Positions 4,089 through 57,301 of a DNA stretch of 64,000 bases are shown here, piece by piece (position 1 is the stretch's first letter; every line of letters starts with the position of its first letter). Origin of the DNA: an uncultured Bacteriovoracaceae bacterium (GTDB lineage Bacteria > Bdellovibrionota > UBA1018); the NCBI GenBank assembly GCA_964363305.1, contig CAYIHX010000005.1:61702-125701 (forward strand). The letters are read 5' to 3'. The notes below the pieces were generated by a model that was not told where the DNA came from, did not search any database, and saw nothing but the letters and a program-made list of their open reading frames with translations. A program made the translations under genes and the position numbers.

Positions 4089-4167
4089 GATGATTCAGAC
4101 ATAGCCTCTCCACTTGACACTACGCAACTCGATCCGAGATACGAGATTACAACGAGGAGTAGATTCA

Positions 4168-6269: not shown

Positions 6270-6827
6270 ATGCATTCGCCACCTGAAATCCAGGGATTAA
6301 AAATCATTCTGCGGCCCATGTCGTTAGAGTATGTTACACCTCGCTATCTCGGGTGGCTCTCAGACCCAACGGTGACGCGACATTTAAGTACTTCAAACTA
6401 CACAATCGCTCAGCTCACGACCTACGTCGAGGAACGTATTGAGCAGCCGAACATCTGTTTTTGGGCAATCATCGAGCGATCGAGTGGCATGCATATCGGC
6501 AATGTAAAACTTGAGCCGATCGTCCTGGAGAGTTCACGCGCAACCTTTGGTATTCTCATTGGCGAGAAGGATTTCTGGGGAAAAGGCATCGCAACGGAGG
6601 TCGCGGTTCTGGTAGCAGATTTTGCGTTTCAGAGCCTCGGTCTGAGCAAAGTTGACCTGGGCGTTCAGGATGCGAACGCGGCCGCCATTCGAGCGTACGA
6701 AAAAGCGGGTTTCCATGTCGAGGGACGGTTACGTCGGCATAGCCTTGTCGGAGGCTGTCTGCGAGATGTTATCTACATGGCGAAGTTTGCAGATGGATCC
6801 AATGCAACAAATTTTCATTCTGTGTAA
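6270..6827 (+). CDS. GNAT family N-acetyltransferase (PseH candidate)
   Basis: About 185 aa with a GNAT core (...FWGKGIATEVAVLVADFAF...YEKAGF). Its position in the Pse locus supports a role in sugar N-acetylation. Confidence 0.65.
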   Translation: MHSPPEIQGLKIILRPMSLEYVTPRYLGWLSDPTVTRHLSTSNYTIAQLTTYVEERIEQPNICFWAIIERSSGMHIGNVKLEPIVLESSRATFGILIGEKDFWGKGIATEVAVLVADFAFQSLGLSKVDLGVQDANAAAIRAYEKAGFHVEGRLRRHSLVGGCLRDVIYMAKFADGSNATNFHSV

Positions 6828-28418: not shown

Positions 28419-30337
28419 GATCGTCCCTTTTTGTGCATAGAGTGCACCGTTTCAACCTTCCCCTTGTTCTGTTCTTTTCGTTATTTAAGAGGGTTCGATA
28501 CTGGAAGTCCGAATTGTCGGATATTTCTGTTCGTTTTCCGCAGTTGGAGTGGCTGGATCCAGAGAAACTTTCGGACCTTGATTCCTGGAATTCTGCTCAG
28601 CAGGGTGCTTACGAAAAGTGGTCCGTCTTGGTTTTAAAGGTTCGTGATCGTCTCGTCGGACAGGCGAGGGGGGTCGCTCGAGGCGTGGAACAAAGGGTGG
28701 CTCTTGCTTTTGAGGCAGAAATCCTCTTTGAGCACTTGGTTTCTCAGTGCGTCGAGGCGGACGCTACTGCTATCATTTTACAAACAGCCTGGGGGCAGTT
28801 TTTCAGAAAAATCGGTTATCGATCGTCATTAGGGGGGCGGGGTTCTTCCGTGCGTACATCAGCGGCTTCTATCCCGTTTGAAGTCGCTAGTTATTGGATG
28901 AGGACTGCGAAGAGTCACGCTGGCCAGGTTTGGAAGTGTTTTGCGAGAGTATCCGCTGACGGTCGGAATGCCGTTCGTGAAAATTTAGAGCGGAATGCGA
29001 AAATTCTCGTATCAGGCATTTCTCTCACTGAGTATCCCAGATCAGACGTTCATTTGGATTTTTCCTTTCTCGTTAGCAATCACCACCTTTTAGCGGAGGA
29101 TGTTCTCTATCTGCTTCCTCGTGCGCCCGATTTAGTAACTCAACAATTTTTAGCGAAGGGTGGTGTTCGTTGGTTAGATGCTTCAACTTATCGCGGAATC
29201 CTCAACGGGACCGAGTGCATTTTTGCTGCCGCACACGTGTTGTTCTCTGCTGTTTTTAAGGCCGCGCGTTGGACTCATCTTTTTTACTCTGAGATTGATC
29301 AGATCACATCCTGCACCGCTCCTTGGCGCCTCATTTGGCAGCGGTATCGGCCTGCGATTTATTTGTACTCAGTGAGTGTATCTATCCCCGAGCCTAGTGA
29401 GGCCTCGGCTTTCGACGGTTTCGGTGTTGCAAACGTGCTTTGGTTTTATAGCGCAAACTGCTTTCCGTTGCGGAAGCATTCTTCTTCTTCTCTCGCAAAG
29501 CGCGTGCACTGGTCGAATCCCGTGGCCCAAACGATCTTAGGCTGGAACGAAGAGTTTGGCGCTCTAGTCCGAAACCGCCTTCTGGTTGCGGGAACGATTC
29601 CGAAGATCGTGGCGCTTGGCCCGATCATGTGTGGAGATAGCCGAGATCTCCAACTGGATGGTCAACAGAGTCGTAGAAAAATTGGCATCGTACCGAGTGG
29701 AGAAGGAGCGACAGGGGATTATTTTCTCTCTGTTTTTGATGTTTCTCCTGTACGAGCGCAGATACGGGAATCGGTAGGCCTTGGTCCCGATGTTTACAGT
29801 TTTGAATTCTGCGATTTTTTTTACCGCGACCTAAAGCTATTGCTTGAGCGAAATCCACGTATTCGACTTATCATCAAGAGAAAGAGAAGTGATCCTCGTA
29901 ATTTGCGACCGATTGTGGGCGGCCTGGCGCAACTCATTGCAGACGATGGGCCTTGGCGTCGGTCGAACCGGGTGATTCAAATTGATCCAGAAATTTCTCC
30001 ATATTTGGCGATAGCAGCTGGGGACTTGTCCATTGGGCCGCCCTATACGTCTCCAGTTTTAGGGGCAATTGGGGCGGCCCGCGGTGGTATCTTTTATTGT
30101 CCGTCTGGTCTGCGTCTTACCGGAGCAAATGATGAATTTTCTTTATTTGAGGTGGAGGGGCTGGGTGCACTTGAAAACAGGATTCATGACTATATTGAAA
30201 AGGGAGCAAATTGCGTGAATCAGGGTCTTCTGAAAAATGGGCATGCTGAGGGACGAATTATTTCTAGCGAAGCAGATAGTATCAATTGTATTGAAGCCTT
30301 CGCCGCTACTCTTTTAAAAACTCGGTTGAGCTTATAA
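28415..30337 (+). CDS. Large hypothetical protein translationally coupled to the ABC exporter
   Basis: 640-aa ORF beginning 4 nt inside the exporter stop. No motif I can name. Confidence 0.45.
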   Translation: MRSSLFVHRVHRFNLPLVLFFSLFKRVRYWKSELSDISVRFPQLEWLDPEKLSDLDSWNSAQQGAYEKWSVLVLKVRDRLVGQARGVARGVEQRVALAFEAEILFEHLVSQCVEADATAIILQTAWGQFFRKIGYRSSLGGRGSSVRTSAASIPFEVASYWMRTAKSHAGQVWKCFARVSADGRNAVRENLERNAKILVSGISLTEYPRSDVHLDFSFLVSNHHLLAEDVLYLLPRAPDLVTQQFLAKGGVRWLDASTYRGILNGTECIFAAAHVLFSAVFKAARWTHLFYSEIDQITSCTAPWRLIWQRYRPAIYLYSVSVSIPEPSEASAFDGFGVANVLWFYSANCFPLRKHSSSSLAKRVHWSNPVAQTILGWNEEFGALVRNRLLVAGTIPKIVALGPIMCGDSRDLQLDGQQSRRKIGIVPSGEGATGDYFLSVFDVSPVRAQIRESVGLGPDVYSFEFCDFFYRDLKLLLERNPRIRLIIKRKRSDPRNLRPIVGGLAQLIADDGPWRRSNRVIQIDPEISPYLAIAAGDLSIGPPYTSPVLGAIGAARGGIFYCPSGLRLTGANDEFSLFEVEGLGALENRIHDYIEKGANCVNQGLLKNGHAEGRIISSEADSINCIEAFAATLLKTRLSL

Positions 30338-38234: not shown

Positions 38235-39358
38235 CCATGCACCTCACCTTCGTCTTCGGCACCCGACCCGAAACCATCAAGATGGCCCCCCTTATTCTCG
38301 CAGCTAGGAAGCTCGGCCATCGTGCTGAAGTGGTACTGACGGGGCAGCACCGCGAAATGGCCCGGCAGATGTTGCGCGTGTTTGGCATCGAGGCGGATCT
38401 CGACCTCGGCGTCATGGTTCCCAATCAGACGTTGGCTGGGTTGAGCGCGCGAGTGCTTCTCGCTTTGGATGAAAAACTCTCGCCCTCGGTGAAGCGTGAC
38501 TGGCTGCTTGTTCAGGGCGATACAACGACGGCTTTCATCGCCGGATACTGGGCGTTTATGCGCGGCATCCCCGTCGCGCATGTGGAAGCGGGCCTGAGGA
38601 CGCATGACCTGCGGGCGCCTTTTCCCGAAGAGGCGAATCGGCAGCTGCTTTCTCGGATTGCGACGATGCACTTTGCGCCGACCGCGCAGGCGGCGCGGGC
38701 GTTGGGGCGCGAGGGGATTCCGCGCGCCCTCGTCAAAGTGGTGGGGAACTCGGGCATTGACGCTTTGCTCTGGGTAGTGGAGCGGCTCAAACGCCCGGGT
38801 TCGGGGGGCGTGTCGGCCGAGGATCGGCTGCCTCGTGATTTGCTCGCGCAGCTGGGCGACCGGCGCGTCGTGCTCATCACGGCTCATCGACGAGAGAGTT
38901 TTGGGCCGGACTTCGATGATCTTTGCATGGGCATCCAGACTGCGGCGCTGAAGCATTCTGACTGTGTGTTCGTGTATCCGGTTCACCCGAACCCGAACGT
39001 GCGCGCCCCGGTCGAGAAGTGGCTCAGTGGAATTCCAAACGTGCTGGTGATCGAGCCGCTTTCGTATGTTCCGTTCATCGAGCTGATGATGCGCGCGTCG
39101 GCGTTGCTGACGGATTCGGGTGGCATGCAAGAGGAGGCGCCGACGTTAAAGAAGCCAGTCATCGTGATGCGCAACACAACGGAGCGGCCGGAAGGGGTGA
39201 AGGCGGGGTTTTCTCGCTTAGTGGGAACCGACTCGCGAAAGATCGAGCAGGCCGTGACTCGTGCTTTGAAGCGGGGGTGCGAGGGGCGGGGCAAGAACCC
39301 TTATGGGGATGGGAAGGCTTCCGAGCGGATGATTCGGGCGCTAAATAGATGCTCCTAA
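38231..39358 (+). CDS. wecB: UDP-N-acetylglucosamine 2-epimerase (non-hydrolysing)
   Basis: MHLTFVFGTRPETIKMAPL...HVEAGLRT...DSGG are Epimerase_2 family hallmarks. Confidence 0.85.
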   Translation: MTMHLTFVFGTRPETIKMAPLILAARKLGHRAEVVLTGQHREMARQMLRVFGIEADLDLGVMVPNQTLAGLSARVLLALDEKLSPSVKRDWLLVQGDTTTAFIAGYWAFMRGIPVAHVEAGLRTHDLRAPFPEEANRQLLSRIATMHFAPTAQAARALGREGIPRALVKVVGNSGIDALLWVVERLKRPGSGGVSAEDRLPRDLLAQLGDRRVVLITAHRRESFGPDFDDLCMGIQTAALKHSDCVFVYPVHPNPNVRAPVEKWLSGIPNVLVIEPLSYVPFIELMMRASALLTDSGGMQEEAPTLKKPVIVMRNTTERPEGVKAGFSRLVGTDSRKIEQAVTRALKRGCEGRGKNPYGDGKASERMIRALNRCS

Positions 39359-39547
39359 AGAGCCTACTGGAGAGTGGGTCTTTATCGTCGCTCGTGCTGC
39401 TCACGTTTTGGCGAGGCAGGAGATCAATACGATCATATGGATATTCGTGACATTTGGGGTGTGTATCCCCATGTAGAGGATAAAATCCATACTATCGTAT
39501 ATGTTTTATTGTTTTTGATGTTCGATTTGCGTCAAAATGAGAACTAT

Positions 39548-39563
39548 CTATACGATCGTATAG
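39548..39563. promoter_or_regulatory. Perfect 16-bp palindrome ctatacgatcgtatag (candidate HipB operator), with a related half-site copy at about 39489..39502
   Basis: Read directly. It lies about 18 bp upstream of the hipB start in an AT-rich leader. A second similar site, atactatcgtatat, sits 45 bp upstream. Confidence 0.4.
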
Positions 39564-39580
39564 AAAATGGGGTGTAGACC

Positions 39581-39832
39581 ATGCAGGTAATGACCAACAA
39601 ACGGGGATCGCCTCTCGCGGAAGTACTGCTCAGGCGCCGACGGGCACTGGGTATTACTCAGGAGCAACTGGCCAAATTTGCAGAATGCAGTGTTCCTTAC
39701 ATCTACTTGCTGGAGAGTGGAAAAACCACCGTTCGTATCGACAAGCTGATCGCCGTTCTCTCGGTTCTAGGGCTTCAGTTAAGGGTAGAGGCCGGTAAAG
39801 AAGGGCTGAAAATCGACGAGAAACTCAAATGA
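39581..39832 (+). CDS. hipB: XRE-family HTH antitoxin/regulator, HipB-like
   Basis: LRRRRALGITQEQLAKFAECSVPYIYLLESGK is an XRE HTH. It has a 4-nt overlap (ATGA) with the downstream hipA. Confidence 0.7.
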   Translation: MQVMTNKRGSPLAEVLLRRRRALGITQEQLAKFAECSVPYIYLLESGKTTVRIDKLIAVLSVLGLQLRVEAGKEGLKIDEKLK

Positions 39833-41070
39833 CCTGGGAGGAGATCAAGCACGTCAATACCGCTGATGTTTTTAGAGACTCGGTCTTGGTGGGAAAGATT
39901 TCGCGTATAGATCGGGGATCGGCTTTTGAGTACGACACAAATTACCTGGAGGGAGCGGACCGCGGCGGCGGAATCGCGTTTCATCTTCCTCATTTACGGA
40001 GAAGGCATGAGACGTCGGGAGTGAATCTCCACACCTACTTCGCGGGTCTTCTCCCTGAGGGCCTTCGCTTGAGAGCCTTGACGAAGCGGATGAAGACCTC
40101 GGAAGACGATCTCCTGAGCTTGCTGATTGCCACGGGTGGCGATTGCATCGGTGATGTTTCAGTTGTTCCTGAAAATCAACAACCCTCGAAGAAGGCGGTG
40201 CCTACGGTCGAGGTAAAAAATTTGAGAAAAGTCGTGTTCGCTGAGCTCTTCGAGCGAAGCATCGACTATGATGCGACTCAAAGTCCGGAACCTGAATCCA
40301 GCATCCCCGGTGTGCAGGAAAAAATATCAGCCGCGACGATTTCTTTTCCTGTGAAAACAAAAAAGACTCATGGTTCGTTTATCTTGAAACTCAATCCTCC
40401 CGACAAGCCGCGACTTGTTGAAAATGAGGATTTTTTTCTTCGCATGGCCAGAGCCTGTGGCCTCGAAGTGCCGAATGCCAAGCTTGTCAGGGACCGAGAA
40501 AACAATACCGGAATTTTGATCGAGAGATTTGACCGGATCCTTGTCCCCAAGGATCGGACGACTTTGAAGGTGCATCAGGAGGACGCCTGCCAGTTTCTTA
40601 ATCGCTACCCGTCTGAAAAATATCGCATCAAGTGCTCGGAAATCGCGGAAGGCCTCGCTGAATTTTGTTCCAGCTCTTCAGTGGAAACCTCGCGTTTCAT
40701 TCGTCTGCTTGCGTTTTCGTACCTGATTGGAAACGGGGATTTGCATGCGAAGAACGTCAGCGTTCAAGTCAAACCAGATACAAACGTCGTTACGATGACC
40801 CCGGCCTACGACCTTCTGACTACCTTGCCTTATGGTGATTCCCGAATGGCGCTTCAGTTCGAGGGACGGAGCGATAATTTCAAGAGGGCTTACTTCGTTG
40901 ATTTCGGTGAAAGATACGGAGTGAATAGAGCGATGACCCAATCGATCCTTGACGAGGTTTGCTCCCAGTCACAGTGCTGGGTGGATCGAGTGGGCGAAAT
41001 CGGTTTAGCCGCGAAAAAGACGGCGCAACTTAAATCTCTCATGAGAAAACGTCTCCTGGATCTCCGCTAA
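39829..41070 (+). CDS. hipA: HipA-family serine/threonine kinase toxin
   Basis: HipA N- and C-domain organisation. The catalytic loop IGNGDLHAKNVSV matches the D-x-H-x-K-N motif, about 413 aa. Confidence 0.8.
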   Translation: MTWEEIKHVNTADVFRDSVLVGKISRIDRGSAFEYDTNYLEGADRGGGIAFHLPHLRRRHETSGVNLHTYFAGLLPEGLRLRALTKRMKTSEDDLLSLLIATGGDCIGDVSVVPENQQPSKKAVPTVEVKNLRKVVFAELFERSIDYDATQSPEPESSIPGVQEKISAATISFPVKTKKTHGSFILKLNPPDKPRLVENEDFFLRMARACGLEVPNAKLVRDRENNTGILIERFDRILVPKDRTTLKVHQEDACQFLNRYPSEKYRIKCSEIAEGLAEFCSSSSVETSRFIRLLAFSYLIGNGDLHAKNVSVQVKPDTNVVTMTPAYDLLTTLPYGDSRMALQFEGRSDNFKRAYFVDFGERYGVNRAMTQSILDEVCSQSQCWVDRVGEIGLAAKKTAQLKSLMRKRLLDLR

Positions 41071-41160
41071 TTCGAGGTAAAGGGCGAATCGCCTCCGGGC
41101 TGGGCAGTGGGAGCTTGAGGTAGTCCTGGCCGCTTTCTGGATCGCGACTGATTTCATGAA

Positions 41161-41748
41161 TTGGTTGAGGCGGCCCGAGATTGTCGGTATATCCACGGAA
41201 TGCAAAAGTCTCTCGAGACCGATCGTCTCATTTTGCGTCCCTTGAAATTGAGCGATTATGCCTTCGTGCGCACGCTTCATACAGATCCGAAAGTGATGCG
41301 CTACATTGCAAGCGGGCCCGCCAGGTCGGAAGCCCAAACGCGGGAGTCCATTCAAAAGTCTCTCGCCATGAAAGAGGCAAATCCATGCCTGGGAACCTGG
41401 ATCGCGGAGCTGCGCGAAACTCAGGTGACGATGGGGACATTGATTTTGAGAACACCCGCTACGGCCGAAAAGACCGAGGGCATTGAGATTGGCTTTATTT
41501 TCGCCGCCGAACACTGGGGCAAGGGTTACGCGACCGAAGCGTCCCGCCGGTTGATCCAGTATGTGCATGATGCCCTGGGTGATGTGCGTATCGTGGCGCT
41601 GATCAATGCCGCGAATCAGGCCTCGAGAAATACGCTTCAGAAGCTTGGCTTCAAGACCGTCGGCACCACCGAATACGTGAATCCCGTCGGGGGCGAGGTT
41701 CTGCCCAGCGAGATCCTTGAGTACCAGACCTTAGACCCCACTCCATAA
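41161..41748 (+). CDS. GNAT N-acetyltransferase (RimJ/RimL-like)
   Basis: TDRLILRPLKLSDYAFVRTLHTDPKVMRYI...FIFAAEHWGKGYATEA...LQKLGF is a RimJ/L-type GNAT. The likely start is MQKSLETDRL (about 41200). Confidence 0.7.
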   Translation: MVEAARDCRYIHGMQKSLETDRLILRPLKLSDYAFVRTLHTDPKVMRYIASGPARSEAQTRESIQKSLAMKEANPCLGTWIAELRETQVTMGTLILRTPATAEKTEGIEIGFIFAAEHWGKGYATEASRRLIQYVHDALGDVRIVALINAANQASRNTLQKLGFKTVGTTEYVNPVGGEVLPSEILEYQTLDPTP

Positions 41749-42011
41749 ATGGCAGACAATTATGGAGCATGCTCAAGAGACGTCTGCTGGTTGATCAGTA
41801 CTCCAGTTTTTTGGCTGAACTGCACGCGGCCTGAGCGGATATAGCTTCCGGGAATTCGTTTTTCATCGAATAGAAGCGGAGCTTTGCGCGGCTCGATCAA
41901 GGGTTACGTAGTTTTTTGAGGGACGGTCCTTTAGGCAGAGGGTTCTGAGAAAGAAGCTCTTTCCGCATTGACGGGGTTCGAGGAGAAGGGCGACGTGTTC
42001 TTGGAAGTGGC

Positions 42012-42058
42012 ATATATGTTCAATTATTGCAGTCTGAGTGCAATAATTGAACATATAT
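42012..42058. repeat. Perfect AT-rich inverted repeat with 20-bp arms and a 7-nt spacer
   Basis: atatatgttcaattattgca-gtctgag-tgcaataattgaacatatat, read and reverse-complemented by hand. It lies in a 466-bp intergenic region of an otherwise GC-rich genome. Confidence 0.6.
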
Positions 42059-42215
42059 AACTTCTGATTTGGGGGGATTGCGATCGTGCCAGTAGGGACG
42101 AGAAGTCAGCGTTCTGAGCGAAAGGGGCTCTGGTTCGGCGTAGCTGGTGGTTTTGACATCGGCCAGTCAGTGGGTCAGGATTGGGACATAAGCGGACCTG
42201 TTGGGAAGGTAGTCA

Positions 42216-42626
42216 ATGCCAAAGAAGAAGAATGACAAGAGAGCTGAAATCCATCCTTGGCGGCCTTGCCCAGCAGGTGAGCACTGGGTCGCGACTCACT
42301 CATTGCAGATTCCTCCAAGTGGCAGACATCCCGCCGGCACCGTAACGACCCGGCACGCGCATTGTGCATTGAATCCTTCGAAGAAAGATCAACTCTATCC
42401 TGCGGAAATTCATGAAATCGCCGTTCGGCATTTTTTGAAATTGGAGAAGATGCCCTGCCCACTTGCTCTAAAGTTTGGCAAAGAGGGGAACGCGTATGAT
42501 GATCTCATTGCCGGTTGGGTTCAGTATCCGAACCTTTTCAAGGCTCTCGTCGCTTCGGAGTCCAGATTCAAACCAGACATTTTAGCCGACAAGAAAAATC
42601 AGAACAGCAGCGTGCCAAGGAGCTGA
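42216..42626 (+). CDS. Hypothetical protein
   Basis: 136-aa ORF with a Lys-rich N-terminus (MPKKKNDKR) and no recognisable domain. ggaaggtag precedes the ATG. Confidence 0.4.
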   Translation: MPKKKNDKRAEIHPWRPCPAGEHWVATHSLQIPPSGRHPAGTVTTRHAHCALNPSKKDQLYPAEIHEIAVRHFLKLEKMPCPLALKFGKEGNAYDDLIAGWVQYPNLFKALVASESRFKPDILADKKNQNSSVPRS

Positions 42627-42663
42627 TGGGCCGCTTCCTAGGATACCTGGAGGAGTATAAGAA

Positions 42664-43221
42664 ATGTGGCAAGTCCTCATCATAGGTCTGTTCGCGCCTT
42701 TCACGGTGAATGCCGAGGTGCCATCGGCGCACTTGGGCGCGAGGTTTCCGTATGGCCTTCTTGGGGATGACTTCGGGCTCCTCGCGGCATGCATTGCCAC
42801 ACCCGAGCCTTTCTCACCTGACTCTACCGAGTACCCCTACTGGCAGTGCTTTTCGGTCCAAGAGGCATCCTTTGAATGCGACAGCACGGGCTATGACGGG
42901 AGTGAAAAGTCAGTCATGGCGATCATGGCCATTGTCGCTCGGAAAAACGGCGAAGAGCATGAATACCTATCTCGACGGGCGATTCCCATGAAAGGGTGTC
43001 GCGCCCATGAGAGTGAATGGAAAAAACTGACGGCGCGCCGAAAACATGTCTGTCTGTCGGGGGCACTGATCAGGATTGAGACGACCACGGAGGGGAAGAG
43101 CGTCGGACACTGGATCTTTGAAGCACTCAAGACCGACAAAGGGTGCGATTCCTATTTCGCCGGGGGATGCGATTTAAAGTACCAGGTGAAACACGGGTGC
43201 GAGATCGCGCGGAGGAATTGA
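42664..43221 (+). CDS. Secreted cysteine-rich hypothetical protein
   Basis: Signal peptide MWQVLIIGLFAPFTVNA and about 10 Cys including CDSTGY, KGC, GGCDLKYQVKHGC. ggaggag lies 6 nt upstream. Confidence 0.5.
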   Translation: MWQVLIIGLFAPFTVNAEVPSAHLGARFPYGLLGDDFGLLAACIATPEPFSPDSTEYPYWQCFSVQEASFECDSTGYDGSEKSVMAIMAIVARKNGEEHEYLSRRAIPMKGCRAHESEWKKLTARRKHVCLSGALIRIETTTEGKSVGHWIFEALKTDKGCDSYFAGGCDLKYQVKHGCEIARRN

Positions 43222-43269
43222 AGAGTTCGCTTTTCCAACTTGCCAGGCCCTCGCGATGAGGCGACACCA

Positions 43270-43788
43270 TCACCCCAGTTCGTCGAATAGCTCTTCCAGA
43301 AAAAACTGCGTCTTGGCGGGGATCGCTTTTCGTGGGTAATAATTTTCGATGAGTTCAAAAACTTGTTCTGGGCTTTTGATTTTAAAAAAACGGATGAGGG
43401 TTTTGAGATCTTGAGCGTCGTGGGTGTCGAAGCGAGCGCTGATCGCTTTCATCGCAAGCAGGTAAGGAGTGGGAGGAATCCAGACCGTGAGGTGAGGCAG
43501 GTCGAGGATGACTTGTCTTGGGCTGGAGTTGGCCGGCATGAACCCTTTGACGGCGTCGTTAATCCAGTCGTTGGGGAGCCCGAGTCGAGGGGCGATCCGC
43601 GCCGCGGCTTCCCGAATCTGAGACGAAGGCTCGAAAATGGCGTCGACATCTTTCGTGGCTTTCCTTGCGTTGAAGGCTAGCACCATCGCTGCACCGCCCA
43701 CGATGCCGATCTCGCCTCGTAGTCCCTCTTTCGAAAGTTCTTCCTCAAGTCGGTGAAGTGCCTGAATGATCTGATCCTGAGTCATGTT
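43270..43788 (-). CDS. Minimal nucleotidyltransferase with an AbiEii-like GG[ST]A-x(n)-R-x-[ST]-x-D-[IV]-D motif
   Basis: GIVGGAAMVLAFNARKATKDVDAIFEP resembles the AbiEii/DUF1814 NTase motif, but the protein is only about 171 aa. The likely start is MTQDQII (about 43788). Confidence 0.55.
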   Translation of the reverse strand, partial: NMTQDQIIQALHRLEEELSKEGLRGEIGIVGGAAMVLAFNARKATKDVDAIFEPSSQIREAAARIAPRLGLPNDWINDAVKGFMPANSSPRQVILDLPHLTVWIPPTPYLLAMKAISARFDTHDAQDLKTLIRFFKIKSPEQVFELIENYYPRKAIPAKTQFFLEELFDELG

Positions 43789-43792
43789 TTTT

Positions 43793-44173
43793 CTATACTC
43801 GGTTGAGAAAATTTCCCAAGACGAAGATATTATTTTGCCTGAAAGGGGTTGGGCTTTCCTGAAGCGCACTGGCTTTCAGATTTTCTATTCCAGAGACGAA
43901 GTAAGGTGCAGGTAGAAACTGGGGGCGCGTTGCCCACCATGGTTCGGGAATGTCGAGTTCTTGTGCCAGCGCTCGGGCGGTCGCATTGATGACCGCGCGC
44001 TCTCGCGTTCGCCGGGAGCGCGAGTAAAGGCGTTTCAATGCTTCGAATGTGCGGGTGCGACGAGCCTCATCGACCGCATCAAAGAAGGGCACCCAATCGG
44101 TGAGGTCACGACGCGGGGGGCGTCCGGCTTTTCTGGTGAGGCGTGGTGCCGGGAGCATACGAGGGTGACTCAT
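43793..44173 (-). CDS. Small Arg-rich basic protein upstream of the NTase (candidate partner or DNA-binding component)
   Basis: 126-aa ORF with N-terminus PRLTRKAGRPPRRDL (AT-hook-like). It abuts the NTase gene with a 4-nt gap. Confidence 0.4.
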   Translation of the reverse strand: MSHPRMLPAPRLTRKAGRPPRRDLTDWVPFFDAVDEARRTRTFEALKRLYSRSRRTRERAVINATARALAQELDIPEPWWATRPQFLPAPYFVSGIENLKASALQESPTPFRQNNIFVLGNFLNRV

Positions 44174-44279
44174 CTCTTCAGGGTAGATGATTTCGTGAAT
44201 TAAGGCAATTATGTATAACTATATAATATTACGTGATTATATCATATTATCGATTTGCTCCATCTGAAAGAACCTTGAG

Positions 44280-44327
44280 TATACAATACACCGAATCGAC
44301 ATAAGTGTCGATTCGGTGTATTGTATA
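44280..44327. repeat. Perfect inverted repeat with 22-bp arms and a 4-nt spacer in a divergent promoter region
   Basis: tatacaatacaccgaatcgaca-taag-tgtcgattcggtgtattgtata. It lies between the divergent genes at 44173(-) and 44548(+), flanked by a very AT-rich stretch (44195..44270). Confidence 0.6.
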
Positions 44328-44547
44328 AATATGACAGAACGGCACTCATTTCTCTCGGTCTCCAAAAATCATTCAGACATCCGAGCCGAAACAAACGGAG
44401 ACGACGCAGAGATGGAAACTCTCTTTGAGTTTGGCGAATAGCGAGTCGCTTCTGCATACAAAAATCGAGTTTTCCCGTCGGCAGGCGGCCCGCCATGCGA
44501 TTTGACGCTGGAGAGGGGGTGGTTGATCAGTTGGAGAAGATGAAGTC

Positions 44548-45171
44548 ATGAATCTGGTCGACGCTTTCTCCAGACTGCGGGGACTCAAGCCGGGTACCTT
44601 TCAGACCTCGGATGCGGCAGTTTGCCTGGGGGTCACTCGGGGTGCCGCTAGCAAGATTCTCTCGCGGCTCGCCGACCGTAAGCTTCTGGTTTGCTTGACC
44701 CGCGGGCGGTGGGGGATGGCTGGAAAAGTGGATCGTCTGGCCGTACCCGAGGCGCTCACGGCGCCCTGGCCGAGTTACGTTTCCTTGCAGAGTGCGCTGT
44801 TCCACCATGGAATGATTGAGCAGATCCCGGAGGTGATTTATGCCGTCTCTCTGAGTCGCGCTCGTCGATTCGAAAACGCGCTCGGAGTGTATTCCATTCA
44901 TCAGGTGCAGCCCGATTTTTTTTGGGGATTTGATACGGTGGGCCCGCAGGGACTGAAAATCGCCACGCCGGAGAAAGCTTTGCTCGACGTGCTTTATCTC
45001 AGCACCGCGCGATCTAGGCTCTTCAAGAGACTGCCCGAGCTTGAGCTGACAAAAAAATTCAGTGTCAAGCGGGCCCGTGAAATGATCGGGCGGATCAAAT
45101 CACCCCAGCGCCGCAGTCTCGTGGCCTCTCGGTTTGAGGCGATGATTCTAAATCTAAAGAGGGCGCGGTAA
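44548..45171 (+). CDS. AbiEi-like antitoxin/transcriptional regulator (N-terminal wHTH, AbiEi_4-type)
   Basis: FQTSDAAVCLGVTRGAASKILSRLADRKLLVCLTRGRWGMAG matches the AbiEi N-terminal pattern, about 207 aa. Confidence 0.6.
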   Translation: MNLVDAFSRLRGLKPGTFQTSDAAVCLGVTRGAASKILSRLADRKLLVCLTRGRWGMAGKVDRLAVPEALTAPWPSYVSLQSALFHHGMIEQIPEVIYAVSLSRARRFENALGVYSIHQVQPDFFWGFDTVGPQGLKIATPEKALLDVLYLSTARSRLFKRLPELELTKKFSVKRAREMIGRIKSPQRRSLVASRFEAMILNLKRAR

Positions 45172-45199
45172 GGCGAGATGGAAGTCCGGATGCGCGCCA

Positions 45200-46114
45200 C
45201 TAAAATAAGAATATTTCGCGCGAACCGGATCGAATGAGTTCCCGTATGTCAGGCGTCTCATCGAGGACGATTCGATGGACCCGACAGTAACGGGACCAGG
45301 GGCCGGGCACGGCTCGGTCGCATAAGATGGGGGAGCGCAGTGTAATCGACTGAACTTTGGATGTTGATCGAGCTGCTATTCGGTCTCGAAAAAGGTCATA
45401 TCCGGTTTGAGTGGAAAAAAAGTAGGCTCGTTTCTCATAGAGATCTCTCAGTTGGTCGGAAGATTCACCAGAACTGATGCGTAGGGCCTCTACATTTCTT
45501 AGAAGCTCGATCTTTGCGTGAGCTAATGCTTCGGTTTCATTTGCCCTACAAGAGAAGCCAAATGCGTAACGTCCGGGCGCGTATGTGTTTTGAATCAAGG
45601 CGAAATAGTAGGTGTGGGAGTCAAAGTAAATTTGAGCGCCGAACGTATCTTGGGTTCTGAAATCTCGTTGGAGGGAGATGGATCCACGCCAGGCATTGAG
45701 GAGGACGTGTCGCTCGAGAGCCTCGCATAAGGCGTGCTGACGACAGGCCTTGAGGTCCGAAACTCCACGTGCAGCCATCCCATGTGTAGAGGTGGACCAG
45801 TCGAGGGCAAGTTGGCTCTTTCGAGAACTGTCCGGCGAGGACATGCATTCAACGAAAGCCCACCGTTCCATCGCCTCAAAGATGGCCTTTCGAATGGAGT
45901 GAATCCGGCTTGCATCGGTTCCACAGCCAGGTGCTGAGCTGTAGAGCAGGCTATGCGGCGCAAGCGAGTGGAGAAGGTCGGGGTGAATCCATGCGGAAGC
46001 TTGCCAGAAGTTTTCTGATTTGAGTTGAATGGTGGTAATTTTAGAAATGGGTCCGGTGGGCAGCGTGGATTGAAAAAGGCGTAAATCGTTTTGGAGCTGT
46101 TTGAAGATACTCAC
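45200..46114 (-). CDS. Short YcaO-domain protein
   Basis: Two YcaO hallmark motifs. GCGTDASRIHSIRKAIFEAMER resembles E. coli YcaO GKGATKKAALASALGEYFER. GMAARGVSDLKACRQHALCEALER resembles SAGNTRNEARVQGLSEVFER. It is about 304 aa and overlaps the upstream SBP gene by 4 nt. Confidence 0.6.
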   Translation of the reverse strand: MSIFKQLQNDLRLFQSTLPTGPISKITTIQLKSENFWQASAWIHPDLLHSLAPHSLLYSSAPGCGTDASRIHSIRKAIFEAMERWAFVECMSSPDSSRKSQLALDWSTSTHGMAARGVSDLKACRQHALCEALERHVLLNAWRGSISLQRDFRTQDTFGAQIYFDSHTYYFALIQNTYAPGRYAFGFSCRANETEALAHAKIELLRNVEALRISSGESSDQLRDLYEKRAYFFSTQTGYDLFRDRIAARSTSKVQSITLRSPILCDRAVPGPWSRYCRVHRIVLDETPDIRELIRSGSREIFLF

Positions 46115-47565
46115 TCATAGAGCCCTAGGAAATGAAGTGCGGTCGGTGGTTGAATCGTATTCAGTAAGCTTGCGTCTACTCTCTTTGATACCCAAATTCC
46201 GGGTCGGAAATGAGCAAGGGGGAGGACTAGGGCGTCTTCCTTGAGGTTTTTTTCTATTGCTGCGAAGTCCACCTTTTCTTGGTCGAGAATTTTAGAAATT
46301 TTCCCGGTAGGGTCGGGCAATTGAATACCTTCCTTAGACCTGAACATGAATCGGACGTCATCTTCCGGGTATTCCAGCAAGACCCCGGAAGAGAGAGTGA
46401 TGAGATCAACCGCGGGATCCGCTGGGTCTGAAAAATGACGAAATAATTCCTGGGGGCGAATCGGAATCTCGATCAAGTGAATCTTGTTTTTCGAGCAGAC
46501 GCTTCTGAGTGCGTCAAAAAATGACATAATTGCTTTGTTTTGGGTGGTTCGAACCCCAATACGAAGTGTTTTCGTCGCTGTTGGGCGGATCCTTGCCTCG
46601 GCGTGGGAGTGCTGCGCTTCTGGAGAAACGGGGAGGAGTCGATCCGGGATGAGGATATTTCGGATTCGTATCTCACCGGCAATCGCGTCGAAGAGCCAGC
46701 GCCGGTTTTCTTGGCTGGCGCAGAAGGATTGAATGTCATGACTCGAAACACAGCGCACGAAGCTGAAGTTTGAAACGGCGCCGCCGAGAAATGAATACTT
46801 CGATTTTTCCGGCATGGACAGGATGTCGAGGTCGGTTCCTGGAATCACATCGGAAGAACCGGATTCTTGCTGGGAAACAGCAATTTCGTGTGGCGATTTC
46901 GGATGCCTCCAGTCAGACGGAAAGGCGGAGAGATCTCGGAGTTCGAGGGTGTAAGAATTTTGAGTCCAACTCTTGATGCGGTAGGGTCCGGAGGCGATTG
47001 CAGTTTGGGGGTTTCGCCATGTCAGCGATTTTGGATCAAAGTCTTTCTCGGAACAAATGGCATATTGCCCGAAAGAAAGAAAATCGAGAAGACGTGGGAT
47101 AGGTTTCTTGAGCTGAATCTCGAGGGTAAATTTCTTGTCGTCGGCTTTAAATTTCGCCACGTGTTCGAGAAAACCGGCATTTGATTTTTTCCGAGCGAGA
47201 ACGGCCGAAGCGCGTCTCCAGCACTTCTCGATCGACGAAGGCAGGAGGGGTTCACCGTCATCAAAGTGTAGTCCTGAGCGGATATGGAATAACCATCGGA
47301 GGCCGTCTGGCCCGACCTGCCACGAGGAGGCAATCATTCCCGTGGGCTCGCCGAGTTTGTACTGTGTGACGAGGGTAGCGAGAACAGGCGACTGAGTCAC
47401 GTGGTGGACATGATAGTCAAATTCAAGTGGGTCGGTGGAAAAAGGCATGGACTCGAGCCTTACCTGGAGAGGCTGAGTATCGTGCCGTTCAGAGGTGCAG
47501 TGTGTCGTCGTTAGAAATATTAAGGAGAGGATACCGATTGAAAGCCCGAATCGCGCATTTTCCAT
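46111..47565 (-). CDS. Family-5 extracellular solute-binding protein (peptide/oligopeptide SBP type), secreted
   Basis: Signal peptide MENARFGLSIGILSLIFLTTTHC and SBP_bac_5 architecture over about 484 aa. No adjacent ABC permease or ATPase genes. Confidence 0.7.
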   Translation of the reverse strand: MENARFGLSIGILSLIFLTTTHCTSERHDTQPLQVRLESMPFSTDPLEFDYHVHHVTQSPVLATLVTQYKLGEPTGMIASSWQVGPDGLRWLFHIRSGLHFDDGEPLLPSSIEKCWRRASAVLARKKSNAGFLEHVAKFKADDKKFTLEIQLKKPIPRLLDFLSFGQYAICSEKDFDPKSLTWRNPQTAIASGPYRIKSWTQNSYTLELRDLSAFPSDWRHPKSPHEIAVSQQESGSSDVIPGTDLDILSMPEKSKYSFLGGAVSNFSFVRCVSSHDIQSFCASQENRRWLFDAIAGEIRIRNILIPDRLLPVSPEAQHSHAEARIRPTATKTLRIGVRTTQNKAIMSFFDALRSVCSKNKIHLIEIPIRPQELFRHFSDPADPAVDLITLSSGVLLEYPEDDVRFMFRSKEGIQLPDPTGKISKILDQEKVDFAAIEKNLKEDALVLPLAHFRPGIWVSKRVDASLLNTIQPPTALHFLGLYE

Positions 47566-47763
47566 GTGTGTGAAGTATGCACCCTACGAGCGATGAATAC
47601 CCCAGCATTTTCTGAGCCAGAACCTTCGCTTTTTGTACTTTCTGAAACACTTTGCGTGAGTGGATGAAGTTTCTCGCTCGCTTGCGAGAGTCCAAAAAAA
47701 GACAATAAAACCAAAAGATAAGGAGAAGATAGCTTCTCATGTCTGACCTCGGGAGTTGGTTTA

Positions 47764-48930
47764 TTGCATTTAATGCGATATGTCAAATTTGTGTTTTTTC
47801 CAGAACGTCGGCTCCCGATAGGTAGGCGCTCTCTATTGGCCTTTTTGGCAATTGTATTGCTTGGGCTTCTTTCAATTGCGTCGATTCGCTTTGATCAGAT
47901 TCGAGAGGGAGACCAGCTCGAGCTGGTTCTTCCTCGCGCCATTCGAGGTGCGTTAGATAACTCGACTCGGCCTTCCGATCTGATTGTTTCCGTGGGGCGG
48001 ACGCTCGATATTTTTCATTGGAAACGGGTAGAGATTTGGAAAAAAGACGAGCTGCTCTTTGAGAGAAGGAGGGGTTGGAGTTTACCCGTGTTTTTGCTTC
48101 GGGAACTGAGAATTCAGCCTACGCCAAGTGATCCCCAGTTATTTCTCAAGGTTTGGATTCCGCCTAACTTTGAAAATGGTTTCGTTTTTTCTCTGTTTAT
48201 CGTTTTAGCCGCTGCGGGAGTTTGGATCATTGTCCGGTTGCAGTTTGAATGGAACGAGCGGTTGATGGCGGCGCGGGCTGAGTACTTTCATTTGGCGAAG
48301 CAAACCGCTCATGATTTGCGGTCGCCTGTCGGCGCATTGAGGATACTGGTCCGGTCGGCCGGGGGCAGCATAGAGCCAGAGCTTCGCACACTATTGGAAT
48401 CCGCTGTCCGTAGTATCGGACAGATTTCTGATTCCCTGCTCTTGAAGTCCAATGCCTCGCGGGGCGCCAGTATTTCTGAAATTGAATTGCAGCTACGAAA
48501 GGTGATTGATCTTAAGAAGCTGGAATGGAGCTTGGGGCCGAGCATTGCTATGGAGGTCGAACACGAGATAGCCGACGCCACTACCTGTTTTAGGATGCCA
48601 CACGGCGGGCTGGATTCGATTCTTTCCAATCTTCTCAATAACGCGAAGGAGGCGGGGCATCCATTGGATCGACCGATTTTGGTTCGGATGGTGAGTTCGG
48701 CGGGTGAGCTACGGGTTGAAGTGGTTGATGCCGGGAAGGGAATTCCTGTGGGAGTGTTGAAGTCTCTTCTGAAGGGTGAAAGCGGGGTATCGACCAAGCA
48801 ATCCGGAAATGGATTGGGTTTGTCAGGTGCCATGAAAAAGATGAGAGAGGTCGATGGTCGGCTCGAACTCGATTCGGAGGACGGAGTGGGTACTCGAGTT
48901 CGGCTGTATTTTTCAGAGAATGGAGTTTGA
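47764..48930 (+). CDS. Sensor histidine kinase with periplasmic loop (orphan; no adjacent response regulator)
   Basis: Two TM segments flank a loop of about 120 aa. H-box AHDLRSPVGAL, N-box LSNLLNNAKEAG and G-boxes DAGKGIP / GNGLGLS. Confidence 0.75.
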   Translation: MHLMRYVKFVFFPERRLPIGRRSLLAFLAIVLLGLLSIASIRFDQIREGDQLELVLPRAIRGALDNSTRPSDLIVSVGRTLDIFHWKRVEIWKKDELLFERRRGWSLPVFLLRELRIQPTPSDPQLFLKVWIPPNFENGFVFSLFIVLAAAGVWIIVRLQFEWNERLMAARAEYFHLAKQTAHDLRSPVGALRILVRSAGGSIEPELRTLLESAVRSIGQISDSLLLKSNASRGASISEIELQLRKVIDLKKLEWSLGPSIAMEVEHEIADATTCFRMPHGGLDSILSNLLNNAKEAGHPLDRPILVRMVSSAGELRVEVVDAGKGIPVGVLKSLLKGESGVSTKQSGNGLGLSGAMKKMREVDGRLELDSEDGVGTRVRLYFSENGV

Positions 48931-48989
48931 TCGGGATTTTCCGTATTTAGGAATTGGCGATCGGGCCCTGATTTGAGACGAGAGGAAGT

Positions 48990-49958
48990 ATGAGTTCTGG
49001 AAAACCCATCTTAGTCACCGGCTCCTCCGGCTTCATCGGGACCCATCTGGTGAGCCTGCTCTCCGCCCAGGGCGCCACGGTGACAGGCTTTGATCTGAAG
49101 CCAGCGACGGCTTCGGGCTATCGCGCAGTCGAAGGGGACCTCCGCAAGCTGACGTCCGCCGGATGGGATGATTTGCTTTCGGGCGTCTCGGCGGTGTTTC
49201 ATTTGGCGGCGACGGTGAGTATTCCGGCTTGCCAGGAAGACCCGATCGCGAGTGAAGAGAATAATGTCGCCGTGACGCTGCGGCTTCTCGATGCTTTGCG
49301 GAGGCAGAAGACTCGGTCCGGGGAGTGCGCGCGTTTCTACTTTGCGAGCTCGGCGGCGATCTATGGCGCTCGGGGCGACTCCGGGGATGCTTTGCGTGAA
49401 GAGGATGTCCCAGATCGATTTCTTTCGTTCTACGCGGCTCAGAAAGGGGCGAGCGAACAGCTGGCCCATCAGTACGCGGAACATTTTGCGATTCCGGCGC
49501 TGTCGTTTCGCTTCTTCAATGTGTACGGCGCGGGACAGGACCCGGTTTCGCCGTATTCGGGCGTGATTTCGCGATTTTTGCATTTTCTGGCTCAGGGGCA
49601 GCCGCTCGTTTTACAAGGGGGCGGCAAGGCGGTTCGAGATTTTATTCAGGTGTCCGACCTCGTGGGCGCGATAGTGCGGGCGCTGGATGTTCCCGTGGCT
49701 CAGATGAAGGGGCAGGCCGTGAATCTGGCCAGCGGAACCAGCGTGTCGATTCGAGAGATGGCCGAGGCTTTTGAGCGGATCGTGAAGGCCGCAGGTCGCC
49801 CCTGGCCGGGATTTCAGGAGGCTCCTCCTCGGGGGGGCGATGTTCGATTTTCGCGCGCGGATCTCACGCGCTGCCGCTCCCTGCTCGGTCAGGCGCAGCC
49901 TCATTCTCTCGAGGCGGGCTTGCGGGAGCTGCTTGCGGGGGAATCCGGCGCTTGCTAA
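48990..49958 (+). CDS. NAD-dependent epimerase/dehydratase (UDP-sugar 4-epimerase-like)
   Basis: ILVTGSSGFIGTHLVSLL Rossmann motif. A YxxxK segment (YAAQKGASEQ) is present. Confidence 0.8.
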   Translation: MSSGKPILVTGSSGFIGTHLVSLLSAQGATVTGFDLKPATASGYRAVEGDLRKLTSAGWDDLLSGVSAVFHLAATVSIPACQEDPIASEENNVAVTLRLLDALRRQKTRSGECARFYFASSAAIYGARGDSGDALREEDVPDRFLSFYAAQKGASEQLAHQYAEHFAIPALSFRFFNVYGAGQDPVSPYSGVISRFLHFLAQGQPLVLQGGGKAVRDFIQVSDLVGAIVRALDVPVAQMKGQAVNLASGTSVSIREMAEAFERIVKAAGRPWPGFQEAPPRGGDVRFSRADLTRCRSLLGQAQPHSLEAGLRELLAGESGAC

Positions 49959-49973
49959 CTTGCCTTTAGACCT

Positions 49974-50066
49974 ATGAATGTCACCCCGCTGAAGAATGCA
50001 TATGCGTCGTTGGAAGAAGTTTTGGCTCAGCCCTATAACGACTTTATTCGAGACGCGAGAGTATGA
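49974..50066 (+). pseudogene. Possible 30-codon remnant of a HEPN (HI0074-like NTase-substrate-binding) gene
   Basis: MNVTPLKNAYASLEEVLAQPYNDFIRDARV* resembles the N-terminus of HI0074-family proteins (...kkAlerLeEal...iirDa..) but stops after 30 codons. Its stop overlaps the MNT start (ATGA). Confidence 0.25.
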
Positions 50067-50347
50067 ACGATCAGGTGGCAGGATCAGGAGTGACTCCGCC
50101 GCAGCGAGATCTCATTCTCAAGTCAAAAGTGCTCCTGTTCGGCTCGCGCGCCAAAGGCTCGGCGCGGCAGTATTCAGATTTGGATCTCGCCCTCCAACCC
50201 AGTCGGTCGCTCACTTCAGCGCAGCTGCGGGCCATTCGAGAAATTTTTTCAGAGAGCGATCTCCCTTTTTTGGTCGACTTGGTGATATGGGAGGATCTGG
50301 ATCCCGAATTTCAGAAGTTGATTGAGCGGGAGTGTGTCGAGTTTTAA
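50063..50347 (+). CDS. Minimal nucleotidyltransferase (MNT/MntA-like, Pol-beta superfamily)
   Basis: LLFGSRAKGSARQYSDLDLAL is the GS-x(n)-D-x-D NTase motif, about 94 aa. Confidence 0.7.
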   Translation: MNDQVAGSGVTPPQRDLILKSKVLLFGSRAKGSARQYSDLDLALQPSRSLTSAQLRAIREIFSESDLPFLVDLVIWEDLDPEFQKLIERECVEF

Positions 50348-56693: not shown

Positions 56694-57071
56694 CTACTTC
56701 AACCGCAACCCACTGACCCGTTCGAAGTGTTTCCGGTTGCGGGTCAGCAGTGAGGCCCGTTTTTCGAGGCAGATGCCCGCGATGAGGGAGTCGGCCATTC
56801 CAATGGTGGCGCGCTTTTCTTCGAGTTCTTTGCGCACGCGGGCGGCTTTCTCGGCGGAGGGGGCGTCCAAGGGGAAGAGGGTGAGGGCGGCGAGCAGGGT
56901 CTCTACCGCTGCGGCTTGCATCTTGGAATGAGCGCCGGCCCAGAGCTCGAACGCCGTGATGGCAGTGGTGGAAAGCGAGCCGGCCTTTAAGAGCGCCTCG
57001 ACCTGGCTGGCCGCGCCCCGCCCTCTGAGGAAGTCGATCAAGACATCAGTGTCCGCGATGGTCATCGCCAT
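56694..57071 (-). CDS. vapC: PIN-domain toxin VapC
   Basis: MAMTIADTDVLIDFLRG...; the PIN acidic residues are present (D at about positions 7 and 9, E, and a D in the C-terminal NRKHFERV region), about 125 aa. Confidence 0.75.
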   Translation of the reverse strand: MAMTIADTDVLIDFLRGRGAASQVEALLKAGSLSTTAITAFELWAGAHSKMQAAAVETLLAALTLFPLDAPSAEKAARVRKELEEKRATIGMADSLIAGICLEKRASLLTRNRKHFERVSGLRLK

Positions 57072-57301
57072 TTCTCCCGGAGCGTGGAAGCTCTCGATTC
57101 GAACTCTTCGCCGCCCTTGCCGGAGAAGGCGCCGCGAGTTTCGAGAGCGGCCAGAATGAGGTGTTGTTTGCGTGATTCCCGAAGAAGGTATTCGTCGAGA
57201 GCATCTTCGATGATGGAGGAGAAGCCCTTGATCCCTCTTTTTGCAGCGAGCCGGAGGAGTTCGGCTCGCTGCGCTGGCTTGAGTTCAATAGTCGTTCTCA
57301 T
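57062..57301 (-). CDS. VapB-type antitoxin (ribbon-helix-helix / CopG-like)
   Basis: 79 aa, MRTTIELKPAQRAELLRLAAKRGI. It overlaps vapC by 10 nt. Confidence 0.6.
   Translation of the reverse strand: MRTTIELKPAQRAELLRLAAKRGIKGFSSIIEDALDEYLLRESRKQHLILAALETRGAFSGKGGEEFESRASTLREKWR

Follow-up and report, generated by a model that had tools for sequence, protein, structure and literature searches.

Introduction

Toxin-antitoxin (TA) cassettes stabilize variable gene arrays and integrated elements, as exemplified by SezAT and AbiE on ICESa2603 (PMC11062541) and by plasmid hipBA (PMC11487325). A related case has been described in Streptococcus pneumoniae, where the surface-polysaccharide (cps) locus of non-encapsulated strains carries aliB-like oligopeptide-binding genes together with the TA genes ntaAB, and the authors suggest that the TA maintains the cluster (PMC3541774). 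Here, we analyzed a 9.6-kb stretch (positions 39359–48989) that interrupts the surface-glycan genes of an uncultured Bacteriovoracaceae bacterium, between wecB, encoding a UDP-GlcNAc 2-epimerase, and the gene for an NAD-dependent sugar epimerase. All positions are those of a 64-kb window of contig CAYIHX010000005.1, the whole stretch of DNA under analysis. We judge, with a probability of about 0.6, that these 9.6 kb are an accretion-and-decay zone at the junction of two modules in a shuffled polysaccharide locus, and not a single mobile island.

The stretch, which we refer to as the islet, resembles TA-rich variable regions and defence islands in that several small self-regulated TA-type modules sit amid orphan and degraded genes, presumably with addiction or stabilization as a consequence. 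It differs in that there is no mobile backbone and no complete system recognized by PADLOC, in its position inside a polysaccharide locus, and in that half of it is not TA. As in the pneumococcal cps locus (PMC3541774), a family-5-type solute-binding gene and a TA module are found inside a surface-polysaccharide locus. However, the capsule genes are replaced in the pneumococcus, whereas in the window the glycan genes all remain on both sides; furthermore, the pneumococcal TA belongs to the Fic/Doc family rather than HipBA, and the phylum is another one.

Results

The islet separates two intact glycan genes

Pfam annotation indicates that almost the entire window is one very large surface-polysaccharide region. 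The gene order before the islet is two Wzy-like genes, an initiating Bac_transf, WecG, GT2, GT1 and wecB, and the order after it is the NAD epimerase, an FkbM methyltransferase, GT2, GT1 and DUF2079. An earlier note, made from the letters of this DNA and its open reading frames (ORFs), had proposed an interruption of the glycan genes at this point, and this is what we observe: wecB ends at 39358, the epimerase begins at 48990, and glycan genes lie on both sides. The interval contains 12 non-glycan genes in 7 transcription units with 6 strand switches. Its gene list had also been read correctly in outline, comprising hipBA, a GNAT acetyltransferase, two small unannotated ORFs, DUF6036, AbiEi, a solute-binding protein (SBP), YcaO and a kinase (Pfam, NCBIfam and PADLOC).

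Both flanking genes are intact. On the left, wecB (38237–39358, + strand, alternative start 38231; Pfam Epimerase_2, E 3e-98) aligns end to end with its closest homologue, P0002, at 63% identity. On the right, the epimerase gene (48990–49958, + strand; Pfam Epimerase, E 1e-49) has a start preceded by a good ribosome-binding site (RBS) and encodes a protein 57% identical to P0125, which likewise aligns over the full length.

The window derives from a groundwater metagenome (sample ERZ1292616, 'Hain_H52_01um'), and the best homologues of its wecB and Bac_transf are from Oligoflexia/Bdellovibrionales metagenome-assembled genomes (MAGs), which makes it probable that the host belongs to Bdellovibrionota. 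The collections searched contained no close relatives, with the next wecB at 63% identity. Searched with wecB, species-representative genomes yielded nothing nearer than 56% identity, and among JGI metagenome contigs the epimerase had only a 28% match. Every islet protein is a singleton 90% cluster confined to this population, with no copy at ≥90% identity outside it among ~15 billion proteins. When islet proteins were searched by tblastn against 93 related loci, only relatives of DUF6036 and YcaO were recovered.

The islet is absent from the loci of relatives

We compared the junction with those of three relatives. In the nearest (a 116-kb contig, JGI 3300059473), compared through its gene tables and two proteins (P0002 and P0125), wecB is followed by a 329-residue epimerase gene with a 4-bp overlap. 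This epimerase is P0125, the fifth best match to the window epimerase among 5.8 billion proteins. The glycan cluster has 13 genes in 14.6 kb and no accessory genes, and its families and gene lengths are those of the window genes to the left and right of the islet, arranged in another order. A candidate for the empty site that the earlier note had suggested looking for is therefore seen between orthologous wecB and epimerase genes, in a relative at 57–63% amino-acid identity. The islet is also absent from a second relative (L082), in which wecB lies between orthologues of the right-hand GT1 (38%) and GT2 (52%) of the window, forming a contiguous GT1–wecB–GT2 run. In the third (L085, Bdellovibrionales RIFOXYD1_FULL_53_11), wecB is the last gene of the cluster. 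A different set of small genes comes after it, among them a DUF6036 gene whose product is 31% identical to that of the window; in this relative, DUF6036 and a BrnA-like pair surround wecB. From these alignments and gene orders, the interruption is most simply read as derived. Since the outgroups are distant and rearranged, the polarity of insertion versus loss rests on two of three outgroups.

The composition of the flanking genes also bears on their history. The GC content of wecB is 0.618 and that of the epimerase gene 0.617, with GC at third codon positions (GC3) of 0.737 and 0.681, respectively. The two genes are alike in GC, which is higher than in any islet gene or in the other genes next to them, as would be expected if wecB and the epimerase gene were formerly one unit. 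These values (0.62 for GC, 0.68–0.74 for GC3) are unusually high relative to nearly all other genes of the glycan region.

The earlier note regarded the co-location of TA or defence genes with a glycan locus as biologically coherent, and such genes do recur in or beside related loci. Besides the genes around wecB in L085, contig L090 has an orthologous epimerase gene (63%) followed by a convergent hipBA (3442–5050, − strand). Since its HipA is only 22% identical to the window HipA, hipBA has been placed independently at the same glycan gene. Furthermore, a full-length AAA_14/DUF4143 ATPase gene and a JetABC (Wadjet) defence operon adjoin the glycan cluster of the nearest relative.

Mobility signatures are absent and composition is unremarkable

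No integrase, recombinase or transposase domain was detected by Pfam in any ORF searched between 34 and 57 kb, and ARAGORN finds no tRNA or tmRNA in the window, bearing out the absence of such genes at the borders that had been claimed for this DNA. No Rfam family scored above threshold, with only hairpin look-alikes below it. We searched the two borders for direct repeats, as had been proposed, and the longest common word was 8 nt, a length reached by 42% of shuffles and therefore at chance level. Phages gave no nucleotide match to the islet, and the 136-residue ORF in the region of 42216 gave no plasmid match.

The islet does not stand out in composition, the baseline being the rest of the window or glycan locus rather than the whole genome. 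The intergenic segments had been described as AT-rich, unlike the rest; their mean GC is 0.499 inside (n = 9) versus 0.489 outside (n = 22; Mann-Whitney p = 0.98). GC3 is 0.584 ± 0.051 in islet genes and 0.571 ± 0.084 in the other glycan genes (p = 0.56). In tetranucleotide usage, 78% of windows of equal size (9.6 kb) deviate more than the islet, placing it among the most average stretches. The earlier note had named uniform GC and codon usage as an outcome that would speak against its reading, and both proved uniform with the rest of the glycan locus, so that the compositional half of its claim falls.

We considered whether the interval could be an integron-cassette array and rejected this, since there is no IntI, the gene orientations alternate, and the palindromes of the islet are perfect or near-perfect, each in single copy, and without an attC core when read by sequence. 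A reading of the palindromes as repetitive extragenic palindromes or miniature inverted-repeat transposable elements (REP/MITE) was rejected on the same grounds of single copy and perfect or near-perfect symmetry.

Three signs of decay in the islet

The islet shows three clear signs of decay: an ATPase gene remnant, a lytic-transglycosylase pseudogene, and an abiEi gene with no abiEii. The first, at 41863–42054 (− strand), is the 5' remnant of an AAA_14/DUF4143 ATPase gene, consisting of 63 codons that cover the Walker A region (Pfam AAA_14 weak, E 0.0034). The remnant is 55% identical to residues 28–57 of a 416-residue AAA_14+DUF4143 protein (pairwise E 2e-8) and corresponds to the first ~15% of the gene; no ATPase homology was found past its stop codon.

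The second is an internally deleted gene of an SLT (lytic transglycosylase) family at 42216–42679 (+ strand), comprising a 136-residue ORF and an out-of-frame C-terminal tail. Among the 218 representatives of this family the best match is 63% identical, and full-length members carry Pfam SLT. Relative to these, 12 residues and the entire catalytic core are missing after KKNQNS, and the tail RFLGYLEEYKKC is readable at 42593–42679. With the catalytic core gone and the tail readable out of frame, the 136-residue ORF is a pseudogene. Elsewhere the family, which combines a Cys/His-rich N-terminal domain with SLT, occurs in predicted fusions with HepT, a HEPN RNase (P0277), and with MNT (P0281). 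The domain content of these proteins suggests a TA-linked lytic-transglycosylase family.

The third, abiEi (44548–45171, + strand), encodes a complete antitoxin or regulator of 207 residues (PADLOC AbiEi, E 2.9e-27; NCBIfam TAA_AbiEi weak). There is no AbiEii toxin gene (DUF1814) downstream, where the abiEi stop codon lies 28 nt from the converging YcaO stop.

Two other small genes accompany these. A gene at 42664–43221 (+ strand) encodes an orphan protein of 185 residues, which is probably secreted and Cys-rich according to its translation (signal-peptide-like N-terminus, 8 Cys); it matches nothing in Pfam, NCBIfam or PADLOC. The GNAT gene at 41200–41748 (+ strand) encodes a RimJ/RimL-like acetyltransferase (Acetyltransf_3; Pfam E 5e-31).

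An intact hipBA pair with putative operators

By domain content and gene layout, hipBA is an intact, canonical type II TA pair. HipB (39581–39832, + strand, 83 residues) is an Xre-type helix-turn-helix (HTH) antitoxin (Pfam HTH_3, E 2e-10; NCBIfam couple_hipB at 61 bits, below the 71.65-bit cut-off). The gene overlaps by 4 bp (39829–39832) the start of hipA (39829–41070, + strand), which encodes a full-length predicted Ser/Thr kinase toxin of 413 residues (Pfam HipA_C, E 1.7e-46; Couple_hipA, E 1.2e-17) with the catalytic-loop motif GDLHAKN in its translation. The nearest plasmid-borne HipA homologues are 33–40% identical to the window HipA.

Three operator-like sites precede hipB (39423–39564), which are copies of a 14-bp palindrome with the consensus TATACGATCGTATA spaced 61–62 bp apart. 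The last is extended to an 18-bp perfect palindrome (39547–39564) adjoining the RBS. Three of the window's four matches to TATACGATCGTATA with ≤3 mismatches lie upstream of hipB, against 0.71 expected in the whole window. By position and analogy these palindromes are probably HipB operators. The E. coli HipB operators give cooperative, multi-operator control of hipBA (PMC3376134). As in E. coli K-12, the gene of an HTH antitoxin runs into that of a full-length HipA kinase, with multiple palindromes upstream, whereas the window differs in having three sites, in their consensus (TATACGATCGTATA rather than TATCCN8GGATA), and in their 61–62-bp spacing.

AbiEi, DUF6036 and the large inverted repeats

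A DUF6036 nucleotidyltransferase gene (43270–43785, − strand, 171 residues; Pfam DUF6036, E 5e-8) lies near abiEi, and its product is 31% identical to the DUF6036 protein downstream of wecB in L085. Upstream of it is an ORF of 121 residues (43793–44158, − strand), which has no Pfam or NCBIfam family match and is called as a gene in assembly L089; it is a possible partner of DUF6036. An AbiE-like module had been described here. This holds for AbiEi, and not for AbiEii, since none is present and DUF6036 matches no AbiEii model in PADLOC. We also considered a conserved AbiEi–DUF6036 module; as the 237-residue DUF6036 neighbour in L085 is not AbiEi, such a module lacks comparative support and was rejected.

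Between the DUF6036 operon and abiEi, in their divergent promoter region, two 22-nt arms separated by 4 nt form a perfect inverted repeat (44280–44327). The arms are 100% complementary, and the repeat contains symmetric promoter-like hexamers on both strands. In the published AbiEi operators, two inverted repeats of 23 bp are separated by 3 bp (PMC7319586), and we consider that the window repeat, which matches this layout, is probably the AbiEi operator. In comparison to the described AbiE systems (PMC3985639, PMC7319586), the window thus shares AbiEi and an upstream repeat of 2 x 22 nt with a 4-nt gap, versus 2 x 23 bp with a 3-bp gap, and differs in that AbiEii is absent and the nearby nucleotidyltransferase is DUF6036, divergently transcribed.

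A second inverted repeat (42012–42058) has 23-nt arms that lie 1 nt apart, with a single mismatch between them (96%), and it includes the apparent start codon of the ATPase remnant. No other local inverted repeat in the 64-kb window is as long as these two. The 42012 repeat has the layout of the 44280 repeat but no adjoining regulator gene. Its right arm supplies the ATG of the ATPase remnant and is an inverted copy of remnant codons 7–14. Given this layout, it may be an orphan operator, of the AbiEi type, or a scar of rearrangement or inverted duplication. Three perfect palindromes had been reported for the stretch; those at 44280–44327 (22-nt arms, 100%) and 39547–39564 (18 bp) are perfect, and that at 42012–42058 is imperfect (96%).

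Accessory genes continue beyond the epimerase

The islet has no clean right border, since an MNT gene lies at 50063 and a VapBC pair 7 kb further, at 56694, so that accessory genes continue past 48989. The orphan MNT-type nucleotidyltransferase (50063–50347, + strand; antitoxin-like; Pfam Polbeta, E 7.5e-10) shares 34% identity (E 1e-10) with the MNT domain of P0281, the protein in which MNT is fused to the SLT family. The ORF downstream of it was considered as a HEPN partner and rejected, leaving MNT without one. With MNT just to its right, the epimerase gene has accessory material on both sides. The VapBC pair (56694–57301, − strand) is intact and consists of a 79-residue ORF with a ribbon-helix-helix (RHH)-like N-terminus (MRTTIELKPAQRAELLRLAAKRG) that overlaps a PIN toxin gene (Pfam PIN, E 6e-16), the pair being recognized by this ORF layout. 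The call of the 79-residue ORF as a VapB-like RHH antitoxin is from its sequence alone, with no PADLOC match. Two large glycan-region genes without annotation flank the pair. TA-type genes are thus scattered across the right half of the locus, with the islet as their densest patch.

The left part of the glycan region carries nonulosonic-acid-type genes: NeuB, DegT, a cytidylyltransferase-aminotransferase, a PseB-like dehydratase, methyltransferases and an ABC exporter. This pathway occupies 4114–25427, with a CTP-transferase fused to an aminotransferase and also ATP-grasp, formyltransferase and PIG-L deacetylase genes. Large ORFs with no family match are found in the left half of the window, for example at 15251–17044 and 28415–30337.

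A compact YcaO protein coupled to a solute-binding protein

The gene converging on abiEi (45200–46114, − strand) encodes a compact YcaO-domain protein of 304 residues (Pfam YcaO at 27.9 bits, cut-off 25.7). Solved YcaO structures gave no match at the level of sequence profiles. We used AlphaFold2 to predict the structure (predicted template-modelling score, pTM, 0.76), and the top 7 matches in a Foldseek search of the PDB were all YcaO proteins (McbD, E 9.5e-7; Mk-YcaO; Ec-YcaO). The acidic motifs SEAxERW and EAxER are invariant in 16 homologues. The model thus identifies the protein as a genuine, compact YcaO. McbD, Ec-YcaO and Mk-YcaO modify peptide backbones in an ATP-dependent manner, and the window protein is like them in predicted fold and conserved acidic motifs; it is unlike them in its size of ~300 residues, in having no partner or evident precursor, and in being coupled to an exported SBP. 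It belongs to a rare family of compact YcaO proteins (~300 residues; L091 8001–8900, L093 8001–8897) with invariant SEAxERW, EAxER and PGPWSRY. Distant homologues lie in conserved core contexts with RsmD, RsmE, a response regulator, a hybrid kinase, PilC, a sigma-54 activator and CarB. These core neighbourhoods contain no SBP, and the SBP–YcaO pairing is therefore local to this genome.

The SBP (46111–47565, − strand, 484 residues) is an exported family-5 protein (Pfam SBP_bac_5, E 3.7e-18; NCBIfam NikA/Opp-like weak), whose gene runs 4 bp into the start of the YcaO gene. It has no ABC permease or ATPase gene nearby, and the neighbouring genes include neither a YcaO partner for ribosomally synthesized and post-translationally modified peptides (RiPPs; E1-like, TfuA or dehydrogenase) nor a precursor gene. 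An ORF of 83 residues upstream of the SBP gene was considered as a RiPP precursor and rejected, as it overlaps the region of the SBP signal peptide and is low in GC. Divergent from the operon is the gene of an orphan membrane histidine kinase (47773–48930, + strand; Pfam HATPase_c, E 4.5e-15), whose translation contains hydrophobic segments and the H-box HDLRSPV. We found no response regulator in the window. The domain assignments make a sensory role possible for the SBP and kinase, and the exported SBP with its 4-bp-coupled compact YcaO and divergent orphan kinase may constitute an undescribed unit for modifying or sensing a periplasmic ligand.

Discussion

We propose that the interval between wecB and the epimerase gene has been assembled piecemeal and is being eroded. 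The two genes would originally have been an adjacent, co-translated pair, between which small self-regulating units gathered over a long period; the recombination by which this lineage shuffles its glycan modules was probably also what brought them in. Intact TA units, namely hipBA with HipB repression at the three palindromes and possibly the 121-residue ORF with DUF6036, would have been kept since their loss is costly, and as a side effect they may have protected neighbouring DNA from deletion. Units with no toxic partner or selective value would erode, as may be the case for AbiEi in the absence of AbiEii, the ATPase remnant and the SLT pseudogene. The SBP–YcaO operon and divergent kinase would be unrelated cargo, most plausibly a module for periplasmic-ligand sensing or modification.

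Several points weigh against this proposal. The relatives are distant (55–63% amino-acid identity) and their loci heavily rearranged, the direction of change is taken from two of the three outgroups, and the comparison with the nearest relative consists of gene tables and two proteins. The recurrence of TA genes at glycan loci may reflect no more than their background rate in these genomes. A uniform composition is equally expected of a native, ancestral region. Lastly, TA stabilization and operator binding are both steps that we infer.

The earlier note had read the stretch as an old defence/TA islet whose mobility genes were lost. Its age, decay and absence from relatives stand, whereas its nature as a single unit, its distinct composition, its clean borders and the defence label do not. 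Individual genes may have an anti-phage role. However, PADLOC finds only the AbiEi antitoxin and weak matches of HipA to PDC-M03A (E 1e-5), and with no complete system present the term 'defence islet' overstates the evidence. A defence island would hold two or more complete anti-phage systems in a cluster, a number that the stretch does not reach, and about half of its coding length (GNAT, SBP–YcaO, kinase and secreted protein) is neither TA nor defence.

The best surviving alternative, which we nevertheless consider unlikely, is that a single old integrative defence/TA island arrived in one event between wecB and the epimerase gene and has since lost its integrase and att sites. Absence of the block between the orthologous genes of the nearest relative would fit such an arrival, the pseudogenes and orphans indicate age, and the SLT family is of a kind borne by phages and conjugative elements (weak Phage_lysozyme2 match in homologues). 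It is opposed by the lack of any recombinase, tRNA, repeat or compositional signature and by the failure to find an islet protein at ≥90% identity elsewhere among ~15 billion proteins, while homologues of its parts are found in unrelated contexts and accessory genes go on past the epimerase.

A lower chance still attaches to the possibility that nothing was inserted, the arrangement being ancestral or native, with relatives having lost the intervening genes or joined wecB and the epimerase gene secondarily. The composition, indistinguishable from the rest of the locus, would be accounted for; adjacency of the two genes is seen in only one of the rearranged relatives, and L085 also has accessory genes after wecB. 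However, the 4-bp overlap of wecB and epimerase genes in the relative points to a co-translated unit, and the GC level common to the flanking genes is distinct from everything between them. Moreover, gene wrecks are unexpected inside a conserved native block, and the accessory sets after wecB vary between genomes.

Part of the block could instead be tied to the glycans, with the kinase, SBP and YcaO sensing a periplasmic signal and controlling the epimerase operon, and the GNAT modifying a sugar. The kinase gene is co-oriented with the epimerase gene, 59 nt upstream of it, an SBP with no transporter partner is typical of sensor SBPs, a second Acetyltransf_3 GNAT (6270–6827) lies within the sugar pathway region of the locus, and the pneumococcal aliB-like ORFs provide a precedent for SBP genes in a capsule locus (PMC3541774). 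With no response regulator in the window, neither the SBP–YcaO nor the kinase–glycan association seen in any relative, and the two GNATs only 27% identical, we regard such a link as quite improbable.

A chimeric join of two MAG contigs, which low coverage (~4x) and a break in an alternative assembly of the same sample at the hipA 3' end (41007–41050) might suggest, is very unlikely, since the wecB–hipB junction is spanned by contig L081, the GNAT through the kinase and epimerase by L089, replicate sample L095 repeats the kinase–epimerase order, and hipA is in frame across the 44-nt gap. Across two replicate samples, the three assemblies reproduce both borders and most of the interior at ≥99.95% identity, with 44 nt within hipA alone unspanned; L081, L089 and L095 represent the same population and not independent strains.

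The accretion-and-decay zone that we favour is a new example of a known phenomenon, and the small leads noted in passing are its most novel parts. For protein-family curators, these leads are the family of compact YcaO proteins and the SLT family with its HepT and MNT fusions. For annotation, the locus illustrates that an 'island' in a polysaccharide locus can be a patchwork in slow decay that carries no signal of mobility or composition, and that a few TA names are too little evidence for calling such a stretch a defence island.

More speculatively, glycan-module junctions in this Bdellovibrionota-like lineage may be preferred sites for the landing or retention of TA genes, which might act there as anti-deletion 'staples' or mark the breakpoints of shuffling. 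Taken jointly with the reading of SBP, YcaO and kinase as one unit, we hold this to be doubtful. If true, the turnover of TA genes and the diversification of surface glycans would be mechanistically linked. One window is insufficient to establish such a pattern, but if TA genes are enriched at glycan-module junctions in predatory or groundwater bacteria, the retention of selfish genes would be linked to the diversification of surface antigens.

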